Below, piece after piece: positions 1 through 58,401 of a stretch of 64,000 bases of DNA. The stretch is from the NCBI GenBank assembly GCA_030390025.1, contig CM059431.1, positions 130,884,001 to 130,948,000 of the forward strand, written 5' to 3'. The stretch is from Squalus acanthias. Lineage: Eukaryota. Position 1 is the first letter of the stretch, and each line of letters starts with the position of its first letter. Below the pieces are notes generated by a model. That model was not told the DNA's origin, made no database searches, and was given only the letters and a program-made list of their open reading frames with translations. Both the position numbers and the translations under genes were made by a program.

Positions 1-1062
1 CTGCACATTGTCTCGAGCGTTGACCACAGATGTTCCCGTATTAAAAGCAGTGAACACATCGTTCACAACACCCCTTCTTTGTCTCCCCACCTGACCCAAA
101 ACTTCGTGTGGTGTGGTGTATAAGCTTGTTTTGTCAACCTCTGCAAAATCAAACTCATAAAATTGCCTGAACATGTTTGTTAACAGGACCTGGTACAATT
201 GTTCCGTTTCTTTGGGGCACCACTCTGGTAAATGCACCTCGGTGAGATTTAGAATCACCGAAGCCACCGCGTAATGTACCCCTTGATATAGTATCTGATC
301 TGTTGGCACCAGTACCAGACCATTCCCGGGCCCCTTAGTGGTTTTAGGGCACCCTTCCTCCTGAGCCAAAACCGCCGGAATCGTGGGCGGAGACTTGCGT
401 GGGCGCATGATGAGTTCAGTGGCGTTTACCGGGATCGGGGAGAATGGAGCTCCGCACCCCCTGGTGCTGACATCCCACCTCATCCCTTTCCCATCATCCT
501 GCCACTGTCGTAGGAAAAATATGGATATACCCTTGGGGCAAACGTACTTCGATCCCCATATACAAACATATATTCCCTCATCCGGTTCCCACCATTTGTC
601 CCAACAGACTTTCAATTGTCCGTTAGTCCCCGTAATTGTCCGATGGGTATTGTTATCCAATCGCTCCCACTTGACCGAGGAATTTCTCATAGTCTTGCTT
701 AACTTCCATAACCACCACCATTGGCTCAATGGGACCTTCCCATTGCACGTCAAACAAATCCTTTTGCCGACGGTGACGCTGATTCTGGGTGCAATGATCC
801 TCACCCTGGGACACAGTAAAGAAGTCTCTTTGTAGGCAAATCCGGATGCGCTGGAGTATTCCGTTGAATTCGTTCCCAGCCATCCCGGCCACCTTCCCTT
901 GTGGAAATAAGTGGCGATTTCCTCAGCCTCTCGCTCCCCGGTCCCATCCGTCGTGATGGGGGCCGTGTCCCCGGAGCAACCGAACACAACGACATCCTTG
1001 GTGAGGCCCCGATAGGCCAATCCATATCCGATCGTTGCGAGCACCATCAGAATCCTTTCCAT
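1..1062 (-). CDS. env: Envelope/fusion glycoprotein with an N-terminal Ig-like domain (354 aa visible, open at the window edge)
   Basis: Manual translation from ATG 1062 shows no stop down to base 1. Features: MERILMVLATIGYGLAY signal peptide; Ig motifs VTVGKRICLTC...W...DEGIYVC; five NxS/T sequons; RQRR followed by GVVNDVFTAFNTGTSVVN. Confidence 0.88.
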   Translation of the reverse strand, partial: MERILMVLATIGYGLAYRGLTKDVVVFGCSGDTAPITTDGTGEREAEEIATYFHKGRWPGWLGTNSTEYSSASGFAYKETSLLCPRVRIIAPRISVTVGKRICLTCNGKVPLSQWWWLWKLSKTMRNSSVKWERLDNNTHRTITGTNGQLKVCWDKWWEPDEGIYVCIWGSKYVCPKGISIFFLRQWQDDGKGMRWDVSTRGCGAPFSPIPVNATELIMRPRKSPPTIPAVLAQEEGCPKTTKGPGNGLVLVPTDQILYQGVHYAVASVILNLTEVHLPEWCPKETEQLYQVLLTNMFRQFYEFDFAEVDKTSLYTTPHEVLGQVGRQRRGVVNDVFTAFNTGTSVVNARDNVQ

Positions 1063-1333
1063 CTTTCCTGGTTCCTGTGATCAGATAAAATGATGTAGCC
1101 AGCCTCCCAAGAGTCTCTGGCTTTTGTGAAGGGTGAGCGGGTCCCTTGACCTCGTCTCACGTATAAAGACATGTATACTGGATAGACTTTAACTATTCCT
1201 ATCACTAACTCCCATCATTTTACCATTTACCTTTAAAATTAAACTACAAACTTACCAAACTTAAGAACACTATAAACTTAAAACTTATCCTAAACTTAAC
1301 TGTACAGCGCCGCCCGTTACCAGGGCGGCCTAC

Positions 1334-2375
1334 CTAAATTCTGCGAAGGCTGCCACGAGCTTTTCCCAGTGGCGGGGGGGCACTGACCCCTTCCTTTGAT
1401 CTGCCGCAGCCTGTCGTCGCTGCGCTGGGACTGGGATCTCCCTGGGCTGCCTTGAACTTACGCCTGGGGGTGTACGAGGGTTTTGGCCACAACTTCCTGG
1501 GCTGGGGTGTCCGACTTGACCTACGGAGGGCTACCTTGGGCAAGATTTCCAGGACCGACGGACCGGGAACCGAGACTTCCACCGTCACGGCCTGTGGTCC
1601 CACCACAGCCGCTGGCTCTGTCTCCCCTGGCTCCGCCCCCCTGGGCTCGGGATCTGCGGTTTCCGACTCCACCCTACTTGTCTCTACAGTAAGTGGATCT
1701 TCACTCACAATCCCTATCTCCCCTATGCTTGGGTCAAGGGCGGAACCTCCGTCCTCCGAACCCACCACCTCTTAGACCGGGTCACTACCTTGGTCGAGCT
1801 CTCCGAGCTCTTCCTCATCTGAATCCCAAGACCAAGAAAAGATCCTACACTTTTCCAGAATGTCCTCTCCCCTCACGCAGGCTGCTTTACCCTGCCTGTG
1901 TGCCCTGCGGTTCTACCCGGGGCTGAGAGTCCCCACTCGCAGGTTTGGCCCCTCCCCTATGACAGGCCACCGCCCCTGCTTGTGCCTTCTGTGAAATCTC
2001 GCCTGCTGGAGGCTGAGGATTTCTATTCTGTTTTAGTTTGGGCAACTCTGCTACCATGGCTTGCAACTGCGGGGTGGTGAATTCCCCCGGGGTTGTTGAG
2101 CAAACCATCCCTCTGGCTTTGGATAGGGCTTGGGTCAGACCTTTTATCCTTTCCTCACAGGGCCCATGGTTTAAATCCTCATACTCTCGGCTCCTGGCTA
2201 CCCTGTAGGCTGCCTTTATGTCTCTAAGCTGCCCTTCTAGCCCATCTATTTTCCCCATTAAGCGGGCGTTCTCCTCCCGCAAGGCCTGCTCTTTTAACCT
2301 GGCCTCCTTACAGGAGGCCCACTCCTGTGCGTGTCTTTCAAGGGGACACAGGTAGGCAGGCTGCGCCGGTTCCAG
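1334..2375 (-). pseudogene. ORF2 of the LTR element (Gag-paralogous coiled-coil module plus acidic/Pro-rich and basic tail), disrupted
   Basis: Continues in frame directly after the gag TGA. Covers track ORFs 1887..2282 and 1334..1768, which are linked by one frameshift (~1890) and one stop (~1773). No protease, RT or integrase core motifs seen. Confidence 0.65.
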
Positions 2376-4175
2376 TCAGAAGTCTGGGTTGTATGGGGCT
2401 GTTGCTACCTTTCCGTGTGAGGTCATAAGAGACCGCATGGCTCCTAACATGGACTCTATCGCATCGGGATGGATAGGCACACCAGCTCCTTTCTCAGAGA
2501 CAGGCGCTTGGGTTCGGACTGCGGGAGCTTTTTCCCTGGAGTCCTTCCAGGGATTCCTACAGTTTTTACGCCAGTGACCTGTCTTCCCGCACCCGTAACA
2601 AACACCACTGGTTTGTGGGGCGCGATTTCCCTCCTGATGCCACTCTTTCTGAGCCGGAGCTGCGGGCTTTGCCTCATGCACCTTTCCCTTAAGTGGACGC
2701 GCTCCCATGCTCCTAGTGTTCTGATACCCTATGGTGAGTCGATTCAGGACAGATTCCTCTGTTGTCTCGGGGTTAGTGGGATCAAACAACGCTCTGGCCT
2801 GCTCCCTGACGGCTGGCAAGCTGTTGGCTACCATGCACCTGAGCCAATGAGCTTTCCCGGCGCCGTCCAGATAGATGCGCTGTGGCGCACCTTGGCAGCT
2901 ACGCTGATATACTGGCCACAGTCTGTCGGCGAAAACCCGCGGGGGTTCTCCCTCCATCTGTACGGTCTGACCCAATCTGACGAACGGACCTTCGTCATCC
3001 GCCCCTAACACTTCTAGGACCTCGTCCCGTAAATCCCCATCGCTTTTATTTCCCTTCTTGCTCTCGTCGGAGAGACACTGAAGGATCGAGCTATCTAAAG
3101 TGAACAGCAACATCTTGGTCTTTTCCTCGTCGTCGCAGCCATTAATTGCTGCGGTCTGTTCTACTTCTCTAAAATGTACGGAAGGGTCGTCTGACTCGGA
3201 CAGCTTCCGTACATGGCTAATCATTGCTCTCAGCTGGTGTGAGCTGTGGGGCAATACAAGTTGGTTCAGGATATCCCCGTCTGCCCCATTTGCCCCATTC
3301 GGGCCTCTCTTATGACCTCGGACCGGACACATCGGTCCCGGTCTCGACGCTACCTCCGGGGATTGTCCTACCTCGGGAACCTTCTTCTCTATTTCCACCA
3401 CCTCCTCCCTTACCCAGGTTGCCGTATAGCTGGGTGGCGCGGAGGGCATAGTGGTATATACCTCTTCTGCTTTTTCCGGTAGGGATTTTGGGAATTCCCT
3501 ACCCACCTGTGGCTGGCTCGCTGACGGGCTGATGAGACACACCAAGCCGTTTGCCTTACTCAGGGACTCCCTCAGGTTCTCTATCTCCCTCTGGCAAACA
3601 CTGTGGTCGGCTCTCTCATGCCTATCCTCGAGGGCCATCTTGTATGCCGCCCTAACTCCCTTCAAGCTTTCTTCCTAAGCTTTTATCTGGCTAGCTAGGC
3701 GGATACACCGTTCTCTAATCCTTCCCTCGCTTAATTTTGCTTCTGTGACCTGACATTCTAGGTAATCAATTTTAGCCTCGTGGTGGTTGGCTACTATTTG
3801 GCGTTCCTGATGTAACGCATTCAATGATGCAATGAGTTTCTGTCCTCCCGTGACCTTTTCCTCCATCTCAGTTTCCAATTCCCTGATCTGAGCTGCCTGT
3901 GCTGCAATGACCTGGTCCGAAAGTTGGACTTGCTTCTTGTAGCACATCAGCCAGACCGCTTTCTCTACCGACTTCTTATGATCTTTACTACCTGTCCATT
4001 TGATGGCGGCGTCTAGCGGACGCTTATCCATCAGTAGGTCACTTATCCACCTTTTGGTTAAGTTAACCTTCCCAAACACATAGTCGGCTACCCTCTCATC
4101 CATCACATTTCACCTATTCAAACCAGGGTCTAAAACATTACTCTCCTGCTGCCAATGTCCTGCCGCGGTCGCCAT
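2376..4175 (-). pseudogene. gag: Gag polyprotein, 600 codons in one frame with two internal stops (TGA 4112-4110, TAG 3677-3675)
   Basis: Track ORFs 3675..4106 and 2376..3665 share a frame with ATG 4175. N-terminal coiled coil, capsid-like motifs (DPSVHFREVEQTAAINGCDDEEK; QMEGEPPRVFADRL), and CX2CX4HX4C knuckle CYGCGKTGHWRKNC at 2600-2559. Confidence 0.9.
4157..4174 (-). promoter_or_regulatory. Primer-binding site complementary to tRNA-Arg(TCG)
   Basis: Minus-strand TGGCGACCGCGGCAGGAC. The plus strand GTCCTGCCGCGGTCGCCA matches the 3' 18 nt (including CCA) of vertebrate tRNA-Arg(TCG) as recalled. Confidence 0.85.
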
Positions 4176-4179
4176 TTTC

Positions 4180-5948
4180 TGTAAGGGGGCATGTCTCAGA
4201 CGGTGCTGGTGCGAGGTTAGGCCTTCGTTGCCTAATACTATTGCTTGCTCTGGTCTCCAGCCAGCCTTTTTGCAATAAGCACCTGTGAGTGGTTCGACCC
4301 ACTCGCCCTTACGGTTCTAACACTGGACTTAGATGCAGGGAGCAGTAATGCAGGGAAAAACTCAAATAGACCCGGTTGAATAGTACGAAATGGAAATCTT
4401 TATTGCATGGCGTCTAAAATCATGAAATACATGTCATAGGCGCAAATCAAAGAGAGTACAAGTATACATACATTCATAAAGCTTGGTCTATGGAAATGGA
4501 GAACACACGGCACATTATACCTTAACCTTATTAAAAACCACCCTCCCGTAACACTACCTACACTACGTCTAGATTTGTAGGATCGTAAAACATGCTCACC
4601 ACTCGTGTTACTTCGGAGATTTTAAAGTGGGGCACTCAGCTCGTTTCGCTGCAGCGCCTGACTGTCACGTGTTTGGAAGGGTCTCTGCACCCCACTTGTT
4701 TACTTTTGCTGCTGCGAAAAGCAGGCCAGACTCCCTGTTGTCATGAAGAACTCGACGGAACTCGGATAAAATTCAAAGAAGAGTCTTCCTGTGTTCAACA
4801 CAGGTTGTAGTCGGTAGAACTCAAAGAAGAGTCCTGTATTTATATTTTCGGGCGCGGTCGGGGTTTACTGACCGTGGCGGCACGTGGAATTTCTTCTCGT
4901 CTCCTCGGGCCTCCGGGTCCAGACACCGTTTACCGACACTCGGGATGGTGTACCCTGTTACTTGCCCTTGTCGGGGCGGCTCGTACCGATTGAGCTCCAC
5001 CCAACACTTGAATAACTGACCAGTATGGCTAAGAGTCAAGAGTCAACAAAGTCCAGAGAGAAAATCGAGAGCCCACAAGTCAAGTGAGTTCATGAAGAGG
5101 CAAGCGAATAAGAGACCGATGGACATTTGTTCTCTATAGTTATAGTGATGTGTCCGCTTATCTCCCGCTCAAATCTTAATGTTTGTCCTTTGTGTAATAT
5201 TTGGCGCTCAAAACTCCCAGCATGGGGCGATTATCTTTTTTAACGGGTTTCGGTAGCACCTGAAACTGGCCAACTATCCGTTAATGTTTTCCCCATTGTT
5301 GGACCAGCCAGGATGTGTATGGATCGTCTCCCTGACTGGTTTTGGGGCCCCCCGAATACTTGCTTAATCACCCGTCGATGTCTCTCTCATTGTAGAGCCG
5401 GGGGGTATTTGTGTATTGATGTGTCTGGATGGGCCTTCGATTGCCCAGTACAATGATCCTTACTGTGCATAGGAAAATGATTCCAGCACTTATATCTTTG
5501 CTATTGTTCCAAATGCAAACGGGTTGCATCCTGTCTTTATCAGTGTTTACCGAGTATGATCCAATCTTATACTGAATGTATATTCAACGCCATCTTGTCT
5601 GCCCACTGTGTTTCTGGAAGCTTCTGCCACGATGCGCGGTGGCCATTTTACAGGCTTCTGTGTCCTTTATTATCAGGACAGCATTTCGTTTAATAAAACT
5701 GATCAACGAATCTGCTTCTCTTATGTTATTTTGAATCGCGATAATTGCGAAACTTTACAATTCCTAGCTTTTTCCTCCCAAAATGTATTACTTCATACTT
5801 GTCAACTTGAAATTACATCTGCTAGCTGTCCGCCCATGCTGCTAACCCATCTATGTCTTTACAGTCCTTCTAGCTGTTTGCCAAGTTCCCTCCTTTTGTG
5901 TCATCAGCAAATTTTGAGATTTATGCCCAAATCCAAATCGCCTATACA
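4180..5948 (-). repeat. 5' LTR (~1.77 kb)
   Basis: On the minus strand it begins TGTATAGG (5948) and ends CCCTTACA (4180), 5 nt before the PBS. TATAAATA at 4844-4837 and AATAAA at 4404-4399. The outer boundary is inferred because no second LTR is in the window. Confidence 0.75.
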
Positions 5949-8436: not shown

Positions 8437-9525
8437 AAACAACAATAACTTGCATTTATATAGCGCCTTTAACATAGTAAAACGTCCCAAGACGCTTCAC
8501 AGGAGCCACAGTACCGAAACTGCTCTTATCAAAGTTACAAGTGACATCCTATGTGACTGTGACCATGGTAAACTATCCCTCCTCATCCTCTCGACCTTTC
8601 TGCAGCCTTTGGCACTGTTGACCACACCATCCTCCTCCAATGCCTCTCCACCGCCGTCCAGCTGGGTGGGACTGCATTCGCCTGGTTCCATTCTTATCTA
8701 TCCAGTCATAGCCAGAGAACCACCTGCAATGGCTTCTCTTCCCGCTCCCGCACCGTTACCTCTGGTGTCCCCCAAGGATCTTGGCTCCCTCCTATTTCTC
8801 ATCTACATGCTGCCCCTCGGCGACATCATTCGAAAATGCAGTGTCCGTTTGCACATGTACACTGACGACACCCAGCTCTAACTCACCTCCACCTCTCTTA
8901 ACCCCTCCACTGTAAATTGTTACACTGCTTGTCCGACATCCAGTATTGGATCAGTAGAAATTTCCTTCAACTAAATATTGGGAATACCAAAGCCATTGTC
9001 TTCAAACCCCACCACAAACTCCATTCCCTAGCCACCGACTCCATGCCTCTCCCTGGCAACTGGCTGAGGCTGAACCAGACTATTTGCAACCTTGGTGTCG
9101 TATTTGAGCCCAAGGTGAGCTTCCGACCAGATATCTGCGCCATCACGAAGAGCGCCTATTTCCACCTCCGTAACATTGCCCAATTCCGCTCCTGTCTCAG
9201 CTCATCTGCTGCTGAAACCCTCATCCATGCTTTTGTTACCTCTAGATTTGACTATTGCAATGCACTCCTGGCCGGCCTCCCATTTTCCACCCTCCATAAA
9301 CTTAAGGTCACCCAAAACTCTGCTGCCCGTATCGTAACTCGAACCAAGTCCCATTCACGCATCACCCCTGTGCTCGCTGGCCGACATTGGCTCCTGGTTA
9401 AGCAACGCCTCAATTTTAATATTCTCATTCTTATTTTCAAACCCCTCCATGGCCTCGCCCCTCCCTATCTCCTCCAGCCTTGCAACCCTCCAAGATATCT
9501 GTGCTCCTCCAATTTTGGCCTCTGG
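8437..9525 (+). mobile_element. L2-clade LINE fragment (RT and C-terminal region), preceded by an inverted L2 tail at 8437-8503
   Basis: HSTETALIKV, LFLIYMLPLG...HMYTDDTQL, ETLIHAFVTSRFDYCNALL; frameshifted. Confidence 0.9.
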
Positions 9526-11221
9526 GTATGTATTTTATAAATTTCTTTGCTGTCAGTACAGATGCTATTCATACCTTAAAGCAGTACCCAATTTCTCATC
9601 AGGGGCTGTTTGTAAAAGCTACTGTAATTGTGCGCAGCCTAAATAGCACCTATGGGTATCCCTCAGGGCATCCTTCTCTAGGTGCAGGTTCTGGAGAAGA
9701 AAGAAGCAGATCAGAAAAGGCATGACAGACAGATGTGGTTGCAGGTTAGTCTCTCAAGAAGGAGTGGCCCTTATGCCACTGCTTATGTATAAAGGGCAAG
9801 GCAATCATATCTGGATATGTCTGAGGATATCCACACATAGAGATGACAATCGCAAAGAGGCCATGACAAAACAGTGCCATCTCCTACAGATCAACTTCGG
9901 AATTACTTCATTGCTTTGTCAGTGGCTGTCAAAGTGACTATTGCCTTGAATTTTTATTCCACTGCATCCTTCTAAGCAACAGCAGGAGACATCTGTTAAA
10001 TCTCACAACCAATGATCTTATATAAATTTCCCTATGTAAAATAGGCAGCAGCGTGAGAGAACTCTGCAATTTTACCATCTGTTGAATTCCCCAAAGTCCA
10101 GGGTGTTAATGCTGACACACATATGGCCCTACTCCTAATACTACTTCCTCCACGAATCGAAAGCAATTCAATTTCATGAATGTGCAGCTGGTCTGTGACT
10201 ATAGACACAGAATCCTGCACATTAGTGCTGCTATCCTGGTAGTTGTTATAATGTTATTATTTTACAAGCAATTGATGGTGCTAAAATTATTTCAGGGGCT
10301 AAGAAGACTAAATGGATGGCTATTAAGGGAGCAATGCCTGCCAGGGGATCACTGACACCCTGACACATTACCCCATTGGACAATTCCTAAATAAAAATAG
10401 AGTGAGGCACACGCAGCTAACAGAATATCAGCATGTTAAAGCAAAGGCTCAGATGCATGGACTAATCATGGGAGTCCAAGATTATTGTGCGCTGCTGTGA
10501 CCCACACAGCTTCGTCCTGCAAAGGGACAATGGCATGGAGCAGAAAGAAGAGGTAGTCTCAACCAGCAGCAGAAGAAGGCAACCAATCATTCACTCACTA
10601 AGAAAATTAAGCAGAAACTAAAAGATTAACCTTCAGTTAAGTACCTTTAATGTCCAGTGCACAACAGTCATCTGCATATGCAGCCAATACCTCTGGCTAA
10701 AAAGGCAATCGTCACTATTGCCCACAGCCTTATATTTGGGCCCATGAATACAACAGCATTTCTCCCCATCGATCTTGCTGTGCTTTACCCCAAATGAACA
10801 GTCATGTACGTAGGCCTATCGGTGAAGTCAAATGTTATTAATCATTCCAATGTGTGATGCAAATTATTCTAACCATGAACCTGGGGGAAGCCTCTGACTT
10901 TATACTCCTCCCTTTTTGCCTCATGCTCAGAATCTCCAGGGCCCATTCCTTCTTCCTGATCTGGATGCATTCTGACTATTATGTGCGGCTTTCTCTTGCA
11001 AACATGTGTTGGAATAAGAATATGATAGATGTGATTTACCCAAGTGTTCAACCCAACCTTATGTGAGCTGCTTGCTGCATTTCAGGGACCACAGAACAAA
11101 TACATTGAAATGGCAGCAATATAGAATGCCTTAGTGAAACGTGGGCATACCTGTGCTTTTGGAAAGTATATGAACAGTTACCAGAGTGGTGTGCATTCTC
11201 CCCGTGTGAAATTTATAGTGA

Positions 11222-28914: not shown

Positions 28915-30712
28915 CTAGCATACGGATACCAGTAGTAGGCAAAATGCTAGAATCCATTATTTGGGACGTGGTAACAGGGTACTTAGAAAATCATAAAATG
29001 ATTAGGCAGAGTCAACATGGTTTTATGAAAGGGAAATCATGTTTGACAAATCTGTTAAGAGTTGTTTGAAGATGTAACTAGTAGGATGGATAAGGGGAAA
29101 CCAGTGGATGTAGTGTATCTGGATTTTCAAAAACCATTTGATAAGGTGCCACACAAGAGGTTATTACACAAAATTAGGACTCAGGGTATTGGGGGTAATA
29201 TATTAGCATGAATTGAGGATTGATTAAGGGACAGAAAACAGAGAGTAGGAGGGAAAAATTGAGTCGCGCCCCCTTTGGGGCGCTAACTTCGCCGGGGCGC
29301 TACCTTTAGCGCCCCCGCGGCCAAAATTAATCGGTAGTGCCCCAAGAGGGAAGCGGGCCACTACTGGAAGCACCCCGCCTCCTTCTTGGGGCGCTGCGAG
29401 GAAATATCGCGCGCTACGTGCCGTGGTACTGCAGGCCTTCCTCCCCTTCTTAGAGGGGCCTTGCGCAGCGCGACCCGGGGCCCAGCTGGGCCACCAGGGA
29501 TTGGAGTGCCGGCAAAAGAGCCCGCCACTCAAGAGAAGTGCCAGGCTCACGGAGCGCAGCCGGCACTCGGGGGGGCTGAAGAGGAGGCCAGGGATGGCAA
29601 CGGGGGCAGGTGCTGGCAGGCCGCCCCAGCCACAGGTAGGCCCCCCTGACCCCGTCGGATATAGCGCCCGGTGGTAAGTCAGGGGGCGCTACCGAAGATC
29701 GTGGCCGGGGCGCGAGCGGGGCGCTGTGCACGGCGATGATGTTATCGCCGGCGGCGCAGCGCCGCAGGGCGCTAATGGTTACCGCCGCCGCTAACCTCCC
29801 GCTGAATTTCGTGGAAGGCGTTGGCGGCGATGCGCCCGGGCGCTAGTTGCTTTGCACCCCGTTAGCGCCCTCTTGGGGTACTAGTGGGGTACCGCAAGGA
29901 TCAGTGCTTGGGCCTCAGCTATTTACAATCTATATTAATGACTTCGATGAAGGGACTGAGTGTAACGTATCCAAGTTTGCTGATGATACAAAGTTTTTAG
30001 GTGGAAAAGTAAGCTGTGAGGAAGACGCAATGAGGCTGCAGAGAGATATAGACAGATTGACTAAGTGGGCAAGAACATGGCAAATGGAATACAATGTGGG
30101 GAAGTGTGAAGTTATCCACTTTGGTAGGAAAAACAAAAAAGCAGAATATTTTTTGAATGGTGAGAGACTGGGAAATGTTGCACTTAGAGGGACCTGGGTG
30201 TCCTTGTACATGAATCACAGAAAGTTAACATGCAGGTACAACAAGCAATTAGGAAAGCAAATGGTACATTAGCTTTTTGTTACAAAGGGATTAGAGTATA
30301 AGAGTAAAGAATTCTTACTACAATTATACAGGGCATTGGTGAGGCCAGACGTGGAGTACTGAGCACAGTTCTGGTCTCCTTACCTAAGGAAAGACATACT
30401 TGCCTTAGAGGGAGTGTAGCGAAGGTTCACTAGACTGGTTCCTGGGATGAGGGGATTGCCCTATGAGGAGCAATTGAGTAGACTAGGCCTATATTCCTTA
30501 GAGTTTAGAAGAATGAGAGGTGATCTATTTGAAACATTGAAACATAAAATTTTTAGAGGGGCTTGACAGGGTTAATCGTGGGAAAATTTTTTCCCTGGCA
30601 GCGGAATCTAGAACAGGGGGGTCACAGTCAGAGAATAAGGGATAGGCCATTTAGGACTGAGATGAGGAGACACTCAAAGGGTTGTGAATCTTTCGAATTC
30701 TTATGTTCTTAT
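28915..30712 (+). mobile_element. CR1 LINE fragment interrupted by a GC-rich MITE
   Basis: GKMLESII...SQHGFMKGKSCLTNLL; SGVPQGSVLGPQLFTIYINDFDEG...FADDTK. Confidence 0.93.
29248..29878 (+). mobile_element. GC/CpG-rich Harbinger-type MITE related at its ends to the 890 bp family; right end truncated
   Basis: Starts GGGAAAAATTGAGTCGCGCCCC and ends GTTAGCGCCCTCTT, as in copy 1. Confidence 0.75.
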
Positions 30713-30729
30713 ATTTTTATAAAGAATAT

Positions 30730-32356
30730 AGATACACACAGAGACAGCGAGAGTGAACCACAGATACACACAGAGACAGCGAGAGTGAGCCACAGATACA
30801 CACAGAGACACCGAGAGTGAAGCACAGATACACACAGAGACACTGAGAGTGAACCACAGATACACACAGAGACACTGAGAGTGAAGCACAGATACACACA
30901 GAGACACTGAGAGTGAACCACAGATACACACAGAGACACTGAGAGTGAAGCACAGATACACACAGAGACACCGAGAGTGAACCACAGATACACACAGAGA
31001 CACTGAGAGTGAACCACAGATACACACAGAGACACTGAGAGTGAACCACAGATACACACAGAGACACTGAGAGTGAACCACAGATACACACAGAGACACT
31101 GAGAGTGAACCACAGATACACACAGAGACACTGAGAGTGAACCACAGATACACACAGAGACACTGAGAGTGAACCACAGATACACACAGAGACACTGAGA
31201 GTGAACCACAGATACACACAGAGACAGCGAGAGTGAGCCACAGATACACACAGAGACACTGAGAGTGAACCACAGATACACACAGAGACACTGAGAGTGA
31301 ACCACAGATACACACAGAGACACTGAGAGTGAACCACAGATACACACAGAGACACTGAGAGTGAACCACAGATACACACAGAGACAGCGAGAGTGAGCCA
31401 CAGATACACACAGAGACACTGAGCGTGAAGCACAGATACACACAGAGACACTGAGAGTGAACCACAGATACACACAGAGACACCGAGAGTGAACCACAGA
31501 TACACACAGAGACACCGAGAGTGAACCACAGATACACACAGAGACACCGAGAGTGAAGCACAGATACACACAGAGACACCGAGAGTGAACCACAGATACA
31601 CATAGAGACAGCGAGAGTGAACCACAGATACACACAGAGACACTGAGAGTGAACCACAGATACACACAGAGACACTGAGAGTGAACCACAGATACACACA
31701 GAGACACCGAGAGTGAACCACAGATACACACAGAGACACCGAGAGTGAACCACAGATACACACAGAGACACTGAGAGTGAACCACAGATACACACAGAGA
31801 CACCGAGAGTGAACCACAGATACACACAGAGACACCGAGAGTGAACCACAGATACACACAGAGACACTGAGAGTGAACCACAGATACACACAGAGACACT
31901 GAGAGTGAACCACAGATACACACAGAGACAGCGAGAGTGAGCCACAGATACACACAGAGACACCGAGAGTGAAGCACAGATACACACAGAGACACTGAGC
32001 GTGAAGCACAGATACACACAGAGACACTGAGAGTGAAGCACAGATACACACAGAGACACCGAGAGTGAACCACAGATACACACAGAGACACTGAGAGTGA
32101 ACCACAGATACACACAGAGACACTGAGAGTGAAGCACAGATACACACAGAGACACTGAGAGTGAAGCACAGATACACACAGAGACACTGAGAGTGAACCA
32201 CAGATACACACAGAGACACCGAGAGTGAAGCACAGATACACACAGAGACACTGAGCGTGAAGCACAGATACACACAGAGACACTGAGAGTGAAGCACAGA
32301 TACACACAGAGACACTGAGAGTGAACCACAGATACACACAGAGACACCGAGAGTGA
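30730..32356. repeat. 32 bp minisatellite, ~51 copies
   Basis: Unit GAACCACAGATACACACAGAGACACTGAGAGT with a few recurrent variants. Confidence 0.97.
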
Positions 32357-53511: not shown

Positions 53512-56500
53512 TCAGTGGGGGGAGATTGCAGATGGTCTTGCAGGACGAGCTCGAGCAGCTCTGGGCCTAGAAGACCCGGCTATAGACTGCACCACCTTGG
53601 CATAGGCGACAGCAGTCTGGGCTGCCGAGCTAACAGGCAACAGCAAGAGCAATGGCGGAGTGGCAGTGGAGGAAGTACAAATGCTGTCATCCTGAGAGAG
53701 GACAACAGGTTCGTGCTCCACGGAGCCACTGCCACTCTCCTGGGGCGGCGCCTCAGCAATCCTAGTAATCTGCTGGAGGACGGATTGCTGGATTGCTGTG
53801 AGACCCTGCAAGCCCCTTTCCACACTGGTAAACCCAGCCACGATGGCAGCAGTCTGAGCTTGTGTGGCAGCAACCTGACCTTGCGTGACAGAAGTCTGAG
53901 CTTCCACTGCAGCACTCAGATGTTGGGTCACTTCCGCTTGTGCTGCAATGGAAGCTGAGACATCGCCCATCAGACCCTGCATCATGGTTGGGTCCACAAG
54001 TGCACTAATGGCGTTACCCATCTCTTCCATCCTGGAAATCATGGGCTCCAAGCTCCTTGCAAAGCACTATGCAAGGTTGGAACCGGACTCCTTGACAGTG
54101 GCAACAGACTCTCTGGCAGGCCTGCCAATGCACCAAGCATTTCTGTGTGCACGCCCATCACCCTTCTTCTATAGGCCGCCCCATCAAAGTCCTCTTCTGA
54201 GTCCTCTGCAGCAGAACCCATGTGCGACCTCGCCCTCCAGGGAGCTGGCACTTGTGCTACCCTTGCCCCTGCCCTGGCTACAGGCCACTCGTGCCCGGTG
54301 ACTCACCACGTGCAGATCCGCCTCTATACGACCGTCTGAAGTACGTGCAGTGTCAGTTTCTGAGCTGGTTCCTGCGAGTGTGAGATCGAGTGACAGTGTC
54401 TCATCTTCTGAACCACTCACCTCTTGCTCTTCCTGCACTGGATGGGCAGGTTGGAGTTCCTGAGCATCTGAAAAGAGAAACGAACAAGGTTAGGGTTGTG
54501 ATGAGGTATGGGGGGAAAGCAAGATATCCATGCTTACACCATCAGCAGCTTCTAAGTAAGAAGAGATTGCGGACTGAGGGGAAGTGGGATGTGAGAAGGA
54601 AAATTAGATATGAGCATAGTGTCATCTTCAATGGTGTCATCCTCGCCAATTGACACAGTCTCAGTGACGGCCCCTCCACTAATGTCAAGCACGGTCTCTT
54701 CCAGCTGGGTCAGGATCTGCAGGCTTGCCCCCCACCGTCGGTTAACTGTTGCTGTCTACGGTTATGAGACACCTTGCCCTGCAAGAGAGAGGGAAGTGTG
54801 TCAGTGAGTGTGGTGCAATGTGTTTGGGTGAAGTGTGTCAGTGAGTGTGGTGCAATGTGTTTGGGTGAAGTGTGTCAGTGAGTGTGGTGCAATGTGTTTG
54901 GGTGAAGTGTGTCAGTGAGTGTGGTGCAATGTCTTTGGGTGAAGTGTGTCAGTGAGTGTGGTGCAATGTGTTTGGGTGAAGTTTGTCAGTGAGTGTGGTG
55001 CAATGTGTTTGGGTGAAGTGTGTCAGTAAGTGTGGTGCAATGTGTTTGGGTGAAGTGTGACAGTGAGTGTGGTGCAGTGTGTTTGGGTGAAGTGTGTCAG
55101 TGAGTGTGGTGCAATGTGTTTGGGTGAAGTGTGTCAGTGAGTGTGGTGTAGTGTGTTTGGGTGAAGTGTGTCAGTGAGTGTGGTGCAATGTGTTTGGGTG
55201 AAGTGTGTCAGTGAGTGTGGTGCAATGTGTTTGGGTGAAGTGTGTCAGTGAGTGTGTGTAATGTGTTTGGGTGAAGTGTGTCAGTGAGTGTGGTGCAATG
55301 TGTTTGGGTGAAGTGTGTCAGTGAGTGTGGTGCAATGTGTTTGGGTGAAGTGTGTCAGTGAGTGTGGTGCAGTGTGTTTGGGTGAAGTGTGTCAGTGAGT
55401 GTGGTGCAATGTGTTTGGGTGAAGTGTGTCAGTGAGTGTGGTGTAGTGTGTTTGGGTGAAGTGTGTCAGTGAGTGTGGTGCAATGTGTTTGGGTGAAGTG
55501 TGTCAGTGAGTGTGGTGCAATGTGTTTGGGTGAAGTGTGTCAGTGAGTGTGGTGCAATGTGTTTGGGTGAAGTGTGTCAGTGAGTGTGGTGCAATGTGTT
55601 TGGGTGAAGTGTGTCAGTGAGTGTGGTGCAATGTGTTTGGGTGAAGTGTGTCAGTGAGTGTCGTGCAATGTGTATGGGTGAAGTGTGTCAGTGAGTGTGG
55701 TGCAATGTGTTTGGGTGAAGTGTGTCAGTGAGTGTGGTGCAATGTGTTTGGGTGAAGTGTGTCAGTGAGTGTGGTGCAATGTGTTTGGGTGAAGTGTGTC
55801 AGTGAGTGCGGTGCAGTGTGTTTGGGTGAAGTGTGTCAGTGAGTGTGGTGCAGTGTGTTTGGGTGAAGTGTGTCAGTGAGTGTGGTGCAATGTGTTTGGG
55901 TGAAGTGTGTCAGTGAGTGTGGTGCAATGTGTTTAGGTGATGTGTGTCAGTGAGTGTGGTGCAATGTGTTTGGGTGATGTGAGTCAGTGAGTGTGGTGCA
56001 ATGTGTTTAGGTGAAGTGTGTCAGTGAGTGTGGTGCAATGTGTTTGGGTGAAGTGTGTTTCAGTGAGTGTGGTGCAATGTGTTTGGGTGAAGTGTGTCAG
56101 TGAGTGCGGTGCAATGTGTTTGGGTGATGTGTGTCAGTGAGTGTGGTGCAATGTGTTTGGGTGAAATGTGTCAGTGAGTGTGGTGCAATGTGTTTGGGTG
56201 AAGTGTGTCAGTGAGTGTGGTGCAATGTGTATGGGTGAAGTGTGTCAGTGAGTGCGGTGCAATGTGTTTGGGTGATGTGTGTGTCAGTGAGTGTGGTGCA
56301 ATGTGTTTGGGTGAAATGTGTCAGTGAGTGTGGTGCAATGTGTTTGGGTGAAGTGTGTCAGTGAGTGTGGTGCAATGTGTTTGGGTGAAGTGTGTCAGTG
56401 AGTGTGGTGCAATGTGTTTGGGTGAAGTGTGTCAGTGAGTGTGGTGTAGTGTGTTTGGGTGAAGTGTGTCAGTGAGTGTGGTGCAATGTGTTTGGGTGAA

Positions 56501-57587
56501 GCGTGTCAGTGAGTGTGGTGCAGTGTGTTTGGGTGATGTGTGTCAGTGAGTGTGGTGCAATGTGTTTGTGCGAAGTGTGTCAGTGAGTGTGATGCAATGT
56601 GTTTGGGTGAAATGTGTCAGTGAGTGTGGTGCAATGTGTTTGGGTGATGTGTGTCAGTGAGTGTGGTGCAATGTGTTTGTGCGAAGTGTGTCAGTGAGTG
56701 TGATGCAATGTGTTTGGGTGAAGTGTGTTTCAGTGAGTGTGGTGCAGTGTGTTTGGGTGAAGTGTGTCAGTGAGTGTGGTGCAATGTGTTTGGGTGAAGT
56801 GTGTCAGTGAGTGTGGTGCAATGTGTTTGGGTGAAGTGTGTCAGTGAGTGTGGTGCAATGTGTTTGGGTGAAGTGTGTCAGTGAGTGTGGTGCAATGTGT
56901 TTGGGTGATGTGTGTCAGTGAGTGTGGTGCAATGTGTTTGGGTGAAGTGTGTCAGTGTGTGTGGTGCAATGTGTTTGGGTGAAGTGTGTCAGTGAGTGTG
57001 GTGCAATGTGTTTGGGTGATGTGTGTCAGTGAGCGTGGTGCAATGTGTTTGGGTGAAGTGTGTTTCAGTGAGTGTGGTGCAATGTGTTTGTGCGAAGTGT
57101 GTCAGTGAGTGTTTGGGTGATGTGCCTGTCAGGGTTGAACTGCTGGCAGTGTGTGCAAGGTGTGAGATGTCGGTATTAGGCTTGCAGCAGTGGTTGGTGT
57201 GTGAGGGTGAGGTGAAGCTATGACTGTGAGGTATGAGTCGTGATTGATAGAGATTGTTGGTAGGTGAGTGATGGGGGTGTGGTGTATTGAGCAGTGTCTG
57301 AGTCTCGTGGTGCAGTGGCGGGAGACGGCTTTTGAAGATGCATTCACTCACCTTGAACACTCGTGAGGTCATTGAACTTTATTCAACACTGGATCCAGAT
57401 CCTCAGGGTAAGACTACTGGCAGTGACCGCTTCCGCTATCTGCTCCCACTGCCTTCTGACTGAGTCTGGAGGGCCTCCCGGTCCTCTGCGGGTGTACGAC
57501 CTGTCTCCACTGTTCTTCCCCCCACACTAAGGCCCCTAGTGCTGCGACGGAGAACCTTGGTGCCCTTTCTCTGCCCTGTTGAGCCAT
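53512..57587 (-). pseudogene. Harbinger Myb/SANT-like DNA-binding protein gene (spliced, degenerate)
   Basis: ATG 57587 MAQQGRERAPRFS; donor AAG|GTGAGT at 57351; acceptor TTGCAG at 54779; exon 2 GKVSHNRRQQQLT; downstream coiled-coil ORF 53512..54051. Confidence 0.75.
54793..57120. repeat. 37 bp minisatellite, ~63 copies
   Basis: Unit GAAGTGTGTCAGTGAGTGTGGTGCAATGTGTTTGGGT. Confidence 0.97.
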
Positions 57588-57588
57588 T

Positions 57589-57842
57589 ACAACAACAAGA
57601 AGAAGTATTTATATAGCACCTTTAACGTGGTAAAACATTCCAAGGCAGTTCACAGGAGTATTATAAGACACAAAAAAAATTTGACACCGAGCCACATAAG
57701 GAGAAATTAGGGCAGATGACCAAAAGCTTGGTCAAAGAGGTAGGTTTTGAGGAGCGTCTTAAAGGAGGAAAGAGAGGTAGTGAGGCAGAGAGGTTTAGGG
57801 AGGGAATTCCAGAGCTTAGGGCCTAGGCACCAGAAGGCAGTG
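57589..57842 (-). mobile_element. L2 3' end
   Basis: Reverse complement of 13790-14017. Confidence 0.9.
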
Positions 57843-57940
57843 GCAGCTGCCTTGACCAGCTCTTCCAGCAGCTGCTGAATGCAGGATGCACCTCACCTTT
57901 AAAAGGTGCCGACTGCCTTTAAAATTGGAGGCTAGCTTTA

Positions 57941-58401
57941 AGAAAGAAAAGAAAGACTTGCATTTATATAGCGCCTTTCACGACCTCCAGACATCTCAAA
58001 GCGCTTTACAGCTAATGAAGTACTTTTGAAGTATAGTCACTGTTGTAATGTAGGAAACATGGCAGCCAATTTGCGCACAGCAAGCTCCCACAAACAGCAA
58101 TGTGATAATGACCAGATAATCTGTTTTTGTTATGTTGATTGAGGAATAAATATTAGCCAGGACACCGGGGATAACTCCCCTGCCCTTCTTCGAAATAGTG
58201 CCATGGGATCTTTTACGTCCACTTGAGAGAGCAGATCAGGACCTCGGTTTAACGTCTCATCCGAAAGACGGCACCTCGGACAGTGCAGCACTCCCTCAGT
58301 ACTGCACTGGAGTGTCAGCTCAAGTTCCTGGAAGTGGGATTTAAACCCACAACCTCCTGACTCAGTGGTGAGAGTGCTACCCACTGAGCCACAGCTGACA
58401 C
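57941..58401 (-). mobile_element. Near full-length DeuSINE (SacSINE1-like)
   Basis: tRNA-like head GTGGCTCAGTGGGTAGCAC, Deu-domain GATGAGACGTTAAACCGAGG...AAAGATCCCATGGCAC, L2-like tail. Confidence 0.85.

Follow-up and report, generated by a model that had tools for sequence, protein, structure and literature searches.

The window analysed here is a 64,000-nucleotide stretch of the Squalus acanthias genome (G000:C7:130884001-130948000 of a 3.7-Gb assembly), and its left edge cuts through a retroviral envelope gene (env) on the minus strand. In our view, positions 1-1062 very probably carry the 5' part of env from a defective provirus, one member of a very high-copy family of snakehead retrovirus (SnRV)-like endogenous retroviruses (ERVs) in this cartilaginous-fish genome. 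The features of the provirus that lie within the window, which include a primer binding site (PBS) and one long terminal repeat (LTR), are given below; the comparator is a full-length, 12.6-kb copy on another contig (L012/L013).

1-1062, minus strand: env codons 1-354 of 783, comprising a signal-peptide-like start, the N-terminal part, an F2-like segment, RQRR and the start of the fusion peptide
1334-1953, minus strand: remnant of the 3' end of pol (integrase tail), colinear with the full-length comparator
1954-2402, minus strand: junction segment of 449 bases, which replaces about 3.7 kb of pro-pol and marks the pol-deleted gag-env subfamily
2376-4103, minus strand: gag, with an N-terminal coiled coil and one CCHC zinc knuckle (2556-2603), and an in-frame stop at 3675-3677
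4157-4174, minus strand: PBS, complementary to the 3' end of the host tRNA-Arg(TCG)
4180-5759, minus strand: 5' LTR (TG...CA), whose partner 3' LTR lies to the left of the window at L011:4686-6315
5760-5763, minus strand: target-site duplication GAAT (4 bp), repeated after the 3' LTR

An earlier note on this DNA had described a hidden minus-strand open reading frame (ORF) at the window edge, and most of that description was borne out. From the ATG at 1062 the frame, beginning MERILMVLATIGYGLAYRG, runs through 354 codons without a stop as far as base 1, and an ORF listing includes it only if open ends are permitted. The translation contains the five sequons that had been named (NST, NSS, NNT, NAT and NLT at residues 65, 127, 137, 213 and 272), the beta-rich stretch GLVLVPTDQILYQGVHYAVASVILNL and the furin-type site RQRR (residues 327-330, window 84-73) followed by GVVNDVFTAFNTGTSVVN; the hydrophobic, signal-peptide-like N-terminus was assigned by eye. 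Two parts of the description have to be revised. The frame, which makes up the initial 45% of an env of 783 codons, is not uninterrupted: with 1.5 kb more of leftward sequence (L001, L011) it ends after 557 codons, counted from stop to stop, and the remaining env, including heptad repeat B (HRB) and the membrane anchor, is held in a second frame of 241 codons (L001). Furthermore, the pre-cleavage subunit is not short, having about 310 residues after the signal peptide, of which only the last 85 or so (245-329) align with paramyxovirus F2. Projection on a full-length copy shows a single frameshift in the window env, near codon 544, and reveals no stop in the reference frame; the part to the left of the window is shifted near codons 544-557. 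The only break in this env thus lies about 570 bases beyond the window, and an intact gene, as had been supposed, is not present at the locus.

The leftward extension proposed in the earlier note recovered the rest of env, with HRB and the anchor in the second frame, as well as the 3' LTR; the assignment of the ORF as the env of an LTR element is supported. The alignment of the two LTRs of the window provirus has 1636 columns, of which 1564 are identical; there are 25 mismatches and three indels, and the substitution divergence is about 1.6%. The comparator has LTRs of 1640 bp with 98.5% identity and an ACGG target duplication. The window provirus is colinear with it from the LTR through gag, and again from the integrase end through env, and lacks the approximately 3.7 kb that encode protease, reverse transcriptase (RT) and RNase H as well as integrase. 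In place of these lies the junction segment (1954-2402), which encodes a second copy of the Gag coiled-coil stretch (40% identity, E 9e-15) and suggests, as far as the sequence goes, recombination with a distant relative. The junction segment is itself a repeat, with 1,627 first-look candidates in the genome and all 40 of those scored at 96-100% identity. This places the window copy in a gag-env subfamily from which pol has been deleted. With pol deleted, a stop in gag and a frameshift in env, the window provirus is defective.

The full element has the order LTR, PBS(tRNA-Arg), gag, protease-RT, tether, RNase H, integrase, env, polypurine tract and LTR, with 4-bp target duplications. The Pfam domains RVT_1, RT_RNaseH, RNase_H, Integrase_H2C2 and rve are found in the comparator, and its Pol has a retrovirus-like dual RNase H arrangement: the tether is a degenerate RNase H, a second RNase H is present, and the integrase has a zinc finger as well as its core. 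The tRNA match of the window PBS was confirmed with ARAGORN, which identifies tRNA-Arg(TCG) on L020.

The family has thousands of copies. A genome search with the 354-residue query returned 7,836 first-look candidates, and all 115 of those scored were 92-100% identical; the PBS 16-mer occurs 2,864 times in the genome, of which up to 426 could be tRNA genes, compared with no occurrence of the reversed control. An early stop past the window edge, which the earlier note had named as evidence against its reading, does occur in the window copy, yet a full 789-codon open frame is present in 39 of the 115 scored copies (for five of these 39 a stop is listed within the first 354 codons). A chance ORF was considered and rejected, given the protein identity of the scored copies and the mostly synonymous differences between them; a bacterial or phage origin was likewise rejected.

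To describe selection on env we used a set of 30 copies, made up of the ten best loci and ranks 11-30 of the scored genome matches. Nine of these are without frameshift or stop, eight of them aligning colinearly along the full 2,349 bases and the ninth differing at the extreme 3' end; 17 carry at least one frameshift or stop, and four align only over the first 1,317-1,857 bases. Nei-Gojobori estimates over the 435 pairs give a median ratio of nonsynonymous to synonymous substitutions (dN/dS) of 0.21 for env, with pooled pN and pS of 0.0167 and 0.0728. By part, the ratio is 0.26 for the N-terminal part (21-240), 0.10 for the F2-like segment and 0.20 for the C-terminal ectodomain. Variants found in at least two copies give an omega of approximately 0.19 (0.14 in the F-like part) and singletons approximately 0.43. 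The RQRR site, followed by glycine and hydrophobic residues, is kept in all 30 copies, as are all 22 cysteines of Env wherever the copies can be aligned. Env was thus under purifying selection while the family multiplied. The low dN/dS across copies indicates that most of the differences date from lineages in which a functional Env was required, and we infer that the pattern is the one expected for spread by reinfection and not for purely intracellular retrotransposition.

A long open frame under strong purifying selection would also be expected of a host gene domesticated from a retroviral env, in the manner of a syncytin, and kept open for a host function, and several public annotations do label env fragments as host genes. 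However, the locus is embedded in a provirus that has LTRs, a PBS and a target duplication; past the window edge its frame is disrupted; its near-identical copies number in the thousands; and the annotated 'genes' are chimeric, combining it with exons of the Niban, zinc-finger or F-box kind. We regard domestication as scarcely credible here and retain the reading of the locus as one copy of an ERV family.

The chimeric models are of some interest in themselves. The gene models P0002, P0006, P0039 and P0085 of other cartilaginous fishes, named Niban 1-like, ZFP2-like, fbxo15 isoform X3 and zinc finger protein 271-like, combine host exons with env or pol pieces of the family. The family thus misleads gene annotation, since several shark and skate models contain pieces of it.

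Public sequencing runs were also inspected. No RNA run containing the family was listed. Of the sampled family words, 14-29% occur in seven runs, which come from two studies and are of uncertain kind, and in four of these runs short family contigs span the whole 5.8 kb. These four contain no gag-to-env splice joint, a result that is uninformative on expression either way. In runs X1-X4, over window positions 1-5800, the contig depth of the LTR is roughly at least ten times that of gag, although depth of this kind is unsuited to ranking the parts.

The relatives of the family were sought through each of its proteins. The closest named Env proteins are from a skate (77% identity) and from sharks, and an exhaustive search of representatives found 51 Env relatives; those looked up by name are from the sharks Mustelus, Chiloscyllium, Heterodontus and Pristiophorus and the frogs Pelodytes, Mantella and Xenopus. 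The closest named proteins make a cartilaginous fish the most likely host, in keeping with the earlier note. Outside the cartilaginous fishes the closest Pol proteins are from frogs and the coelacanth, with 43-47% identity over protease-RT. Among viruses, for which the comparison set was 17 records from a pattern scan of viral contigs, the best record is L023 (E 2e-77). We take L023 to be SnRV, as its RT text is that of the SnRV row in the Wang & Han supplement and its length of 10,688 nt is that given for the GenBank SnRV sequence in PMC12193657. Over the 233-residue RT core the shark family is 45.4% identical to L023, compared with 33.5-37% for the other 16 viral records and 51.7-53.6% for seven frog and coelacanth proteins. 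A quick maximum-likelihood tree of RT, rooted on two Gypsy-like proteins and built without foamy, ERV-L, class II or lokiretrovirus rows, groups the family with the frog and coelacanth proteins [Shimodaira-Hasegawa-like approximate likelihood-ratio test (SH-aLRT) 80], and a strong split (98) separates the family, these proteins and SnRV from the gamma/epsilon records.

Env, Gag and the PBS also agree with SnRV. Comparison of the Env family profile with the L023 Env using hhalign gives a probability of 95.4% and E 2e-8 over 273 columns, with the CPK..GP..G motif and the basic cleavage sites in register. In Gag, zf-CCHC is matched in both the shark element (E 8.7e-4) and L023 (E 4.7e-5), coiled-coil families match both proteins, and BLASTP aligns the coiled-coil and knuckle regions (E 1e-3 and 7e-4); a coiled coil and a Cys-His box are likewise described for SnRV Gag in PMC2717909. 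The L023 PBS, checked with ARAGORN against tRNA genes of the shark genome, is complementary to tRNA-Arg(ACG), so that the isoacceptor differs from the TCG of the shark element. SnRV is thus the nearest exogenous virus by RT, and shares with the shark element the Arg-tRNA PBS, a Gag with a coiled coil and one knuckle, the tether and RNase H layout of Pol, and an Env that is homologous by profile comparison, with aligned cleavage sites and about 400 ectodomain residues in each C-terminal subunit. An Arg-tRNA PBS is reportedly a hallmark of SnRV.

There are also clear differences between the two. The shark Env has 783 codons, whereas the SnRV frame has about 1134, and shark env has its own ATG and signal-like start, while the signal exon of SnRV lies upstream of gag (seen in L023). 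At L023:180-228, upstream of gag, a short ORF encodes a hydrophobic peptide (MKLVLLFSLSVLLG) and leads directly into GTGAGT; this fits the env signal exon that SnRV is said to possess. The cytoplasmic tail of the shark Env is short, compared with 136 residues in SnRV (PMC12193657). We saw no 3'ORF-type accessory gene in the shark element, although no search aimed at small ORFs was made. Finally, the shark family exists in thousands of copies. SnRV-like ERVs are a recognized group (Naville & Volff 2016, PMC4977317; PMC12193657), and the elephant-shark CmiERV lineage I was placed with SnRV (Han 2015, PMC4422223).

The architecture of Env was examined in the full-length copies P0009 and P0010, which have 783 residues from the ATG. 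A fusion-peptide-like hydrophobic stretch directly follows RQRR and a long heptad helix comes next; judged by eye, the cleavage site is followed by a helix rich in heptads, then by a stretch of about 220 residues rich in Cys and beta structure, another helix, the anchor IASHILVVCHVIIVVYLLVIHC and a cytoplasmic end of about 30 residues. An AlphaFold model of the comparator Env, made with an alignment of 34 family sequences, has a predicted local distance difference test score (pLDDT) of 60 overall, with values of 70-95 over residues ~240-650 and poor values before residue 232.

Superposition of this model with known structures indicates an F-type fold. A Foldseek search of the PDB placed the F protein of human parainfluenza virus 3 (hPIV3; 1ztm, uncleaved) first with E 4e-12, and among the matches listed, out of 243 with E<=0.001, all are paramyxovirus or pneumovirus F proteins. 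When the Foldseek list was aligned with VIA-align, Langya postfusion F gave Z 12.8 and a root-mean-square deviation (rmsd) of 5.9 over 337 aligned residues; residues 245-691 of the model correspond to residues 29-459 of the Langya F chain, from the N-terminus of F2 through HRB. In a search of 48,161 representative chains that did not use Foldseek, 11 chains reached Z>=8, namely nine F proteins and two foamy virus Env chains, and the top unrelated protein had Z 6.6. Against predicted viral structures the best matches are arthropod mononegavirus glycoproteins, baculovirus F and paramyxovirus F0, with the Envs of epsilonretroviruses and feline foamy virus ranking lower. Taken together, these comparisons support an F-type class I fusogen fold for the predicted module that begins at residue ~245. 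They agree with the earlier note, which had called this an F-type fusogen rather than a gamma-type Env and had suggested the comparison with viral fusion proteins, where structural similarity was indeed found.

The likeness to paramyxovirus and pneumovirus F (hPIV3, 1ZTM; Langya, 8TVG; Newcastle disease virus, 3MAW; respiratory syncytial virus, 3RKI) concerns both the predicted fold and the order of the domains, beginning at the N-terminus of F2 and ending at HRB, and includes a furin-type site directly before the fusion peptide. In contrast to these proteins, with which it has 7-16% sequence identity, the shark Env is encoded by a retrovirus and carries an extra N-terminal part of about 220 residues, where F relies on a separate attachment protein.

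The N-terminal part, residues ~21-240, is a lineage-specific, beta-rich addition that is conserved among the cartilaginous-fish relatives. An immunoglobulin (Ig)-like signature of Cys103, Trp115 and DEGIYVC167 can be picked out by eye, Pfam Ig_3 gives weak matches (E 0.13-0.6), and the ESM Atlas returns Ig-family clusters at 0.79, which is below the level that counts as more than a lead. These residues are possibly Ig-like, to judge from such sequence features. AlphaFold applied to residues 21-240 alone gave a pLDDT of 43, too poor for a structure search. Zinc-finger matches of the profile of this part in the PDB were set aside as uninformative, as they come from chimeric gene models in the alignment.

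An F-type Env invites comparison with the lokiretroviruses, and the earlier note had indeed placed the element in a Gypsy- or lokiretrovirus-like lineage. On such a reading it would belong to the lokiretroviruses, or else be a Ty3/Gypsy element that carries an env, and its Env would have come from an F protein of the Mononegavirales. The F-type fold of the Env model is in keeping with this, as are the reported resemblance of Loki Env to PF00523 and its RXKR site (PMC7947760), the Env and Pol relatives in amphibians and the coelacanth, which are Loki hosts, and the dual RNase H, a feature of lokiretroviruses too; the likeness extends to an F-like Env with a basic cleavage site, fusion peptide, coiled coil and anchor (PMC7947760). 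However, the RT is a canonical retroviral one and its nearest virus is SnRV, with which it shares the motif LPQGF where Loki-Aro has TPFGY (compared by eye on a printed alignment), and the PBS, Gag and Env also match SnRV. All three occurrences of a 10-residue RT word in the Wang & Han supplement are in SnRV rows; words from the Xenopus, Latimeria and Rana relatives match no Loki row, and only one of four words was matched at all, in SnRV. Furthermore, none of the six cartilaginous-fish genomes screened by Wang & Han was positive (Carcharhiniformes 0/1, Orectolobiformes 0/3, Rajiformes 0/1, Chimaeriformes 0/1; PMC7947760), although they included Chiloscyllium punctatum, which has an Env relative, and Pyxicephalus, which has a close Pol relative, is listed as negative there. 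Hmmscan gives no match of Env to PF00523. A lokiretroviral or Gypsy origin is therefore very unlikely, and we did not follow the earlier note in this respect.

The second retroviral group to be weighed is that of the foamy viruses. The idea that the family is a foamy-like, spumaretrovirus-related ERV draws on the RT, whose best sequence match in the PDB is the foamy protease-RT (PR-RT; E 1.2e-45), followed by murine leukaemia virus (MLV) and xenotropic MLV-related virus at 1e-37, Ty3 at 1e-27 and human immunodeficiency virus at 1e-15, and on the integrase, which matches that of prototype foamy virus at 1e-30, level with Ty3. Foamy Env shares the F fold by cryo-electron microscopy (Sci Adv 2024, PMC11468914; PDB entries 8RM0 and 8RM1). 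It is thus itself a retroviral Env with the fusion machinery of the paramyxovirus and pneumovirus F fold, and our model matches both of its conformers (8rm0_A, Z 8.4, rmsd 6.1, 280 aligned residues; 8rm1_D, Z 8.4, 293 aligned residues). Foamy-like ERVs of cartilaginous fishes are cited in the reference list of that paper, which mentions neither snakehead nor lokiretrovirus. Set against this, Gag has a CCHC knuckle, which foamy viruses and foamy-like fish ERVs are described as lacking (PMC5210030); the PBS is for tRNA-Arg, as in SnRV; no Pfam foamy family matches Gag, Pol or Env; the start of Env is signal-like and terminal, with no long leader peptide (by eye); and the Env profile matches SnRV Env. 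The Env shows no similarity to foamy Env that HMMER can detect, and Gag and PBS are orthoretrovirus-like. We consider a foamy-like ERV unlikely and prefer to group the family with SnRV.

A number of observations weigh against an SnRV-like family with an F-type Env and should be stated together. With regard to lineage, BLASTP of a single Env against SnRV Env is not significant (E 0.18). In the RT tree SnRV joins the gamma/epsilon side (SH-aLRT 87), apart from the shark family, and forcing SnRV and the family into one clade costs 4.1 log-likelihood units with a p value of 0.09 in the approximately unbiased test, the group having been named after the tree was seen. A foamy-side affinity of the RT is possible, because the foamy PR-RT (1e-45) outscores that of MLV (1e-37). 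With regard to fold, hmmscan at E<=10 found no match of Env to Fusion_gly (PF00523), Baculo_F (PF12259) or Foamy_virus_ENV, and HMMER found no PDB chain related to the single Env sequence. Among the 34 Env family members none matches PF00523 and one matches Baculo_F (E 0.0011), and the only match of the family profile in the PDB is a weak one to the HR2/TM region of coronavirus spike (E 0.0078). As such sequence-level matches are absent, the F-type assignment depends on one AlphaFold model, made from 34 sequences with a pLDDT of 60, and the comparator copy that was modelled has two frameshifts in its own RT.

If the assignment is correct, an intact Env of the family would be translated from a spliced mRNA, enter the endoplasmic reticulum and trimerize, and a furin-type protease would cut it after RQRR. 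The N-terminal part would bind the receptor, and the C-terminal subunit would insert its fusion peptide and refold into a six-helix bundle, fusing the membranes of particle and cell. Reinfection of germ-line cells would account for at least part of the family's spread. The window copy itself cannot infect in this way, since pol is deleted, gag contains a stop and env is frameshifted; the gag-env subfamily presumably relied on the enzymes of full-length elements. The family is very large and fairly young. The LTR divergence of about 1.6% in the window copy and the many open, constrained env frames make it a candidate for a recent or ongoing germ-line invasion, and if the reading is true the dN/dS of about 0.2, together with the number of copies and the proportion of env frames that are open, would mean recent infectious spread in a cartilaginous fish.

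More tentatively, and with rather less than even confidence, we suggest that throughout the SnRV-like group, exogenous SnRV included, Env is an F-type fusogen to which a receptor-binding head, possibly Ig-like, has been added at the N-terminus. Were this so, the group would be a third deep retroviral lineage with an F-like Env, after the foamy viruses and the lokiretroviruses, and one with orthoretrovirus-like Gag and RT; an F-type envelope would then be suggested as the ancestral retroviral Env, later replaced by gamma-type and other envelopes. The sharing of paramyxovirus F architecture by the foamy, lokiretrovirus and SnRV-like lineages would, if the fold assignment holds, bear on the origins of retroviral envelopes. 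The fold of an SnRV-like Env can be tested because SnRV is culturable and an infectious clone exists (PMC12193657). SnRV-like ERVs in cartilaginous fish, and the F-like Envs of foamy viruses and lokiretroviruses, are already in print. We found no paper that links SnRV or an SnRV-like Env to F, in a literature search that largely left out subscription journals; an SnRV-type Env with an F fold, which would form a bridge between known groups, is possibly unpublished.

Several minor observations were made elsewhere in the genome and the window. On G000:C26, at ~38.99-42.2 Mb (L021, L022), pairs of tRNA-Arg(TCG) and tRNA-Ser(GCT) genes form long tandem arrays with a period of ~1,623 bp, and the T-arm-plus-acceptor pattern has 426 matches genome-wide. 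At window positions 8438-9540 on the plus strand, two adjoining ORFs contain the motif YTDDTQL, of LINE-type RT by eye, with no Pfam match at E<=0.1. Window positions 54001-58000 and 30001-32000 show strong strand asymmetry, with a GC skew of +0.43 to +0.49 and an AT skew of +0.46, and these stretches may be simple or satellite repeats.

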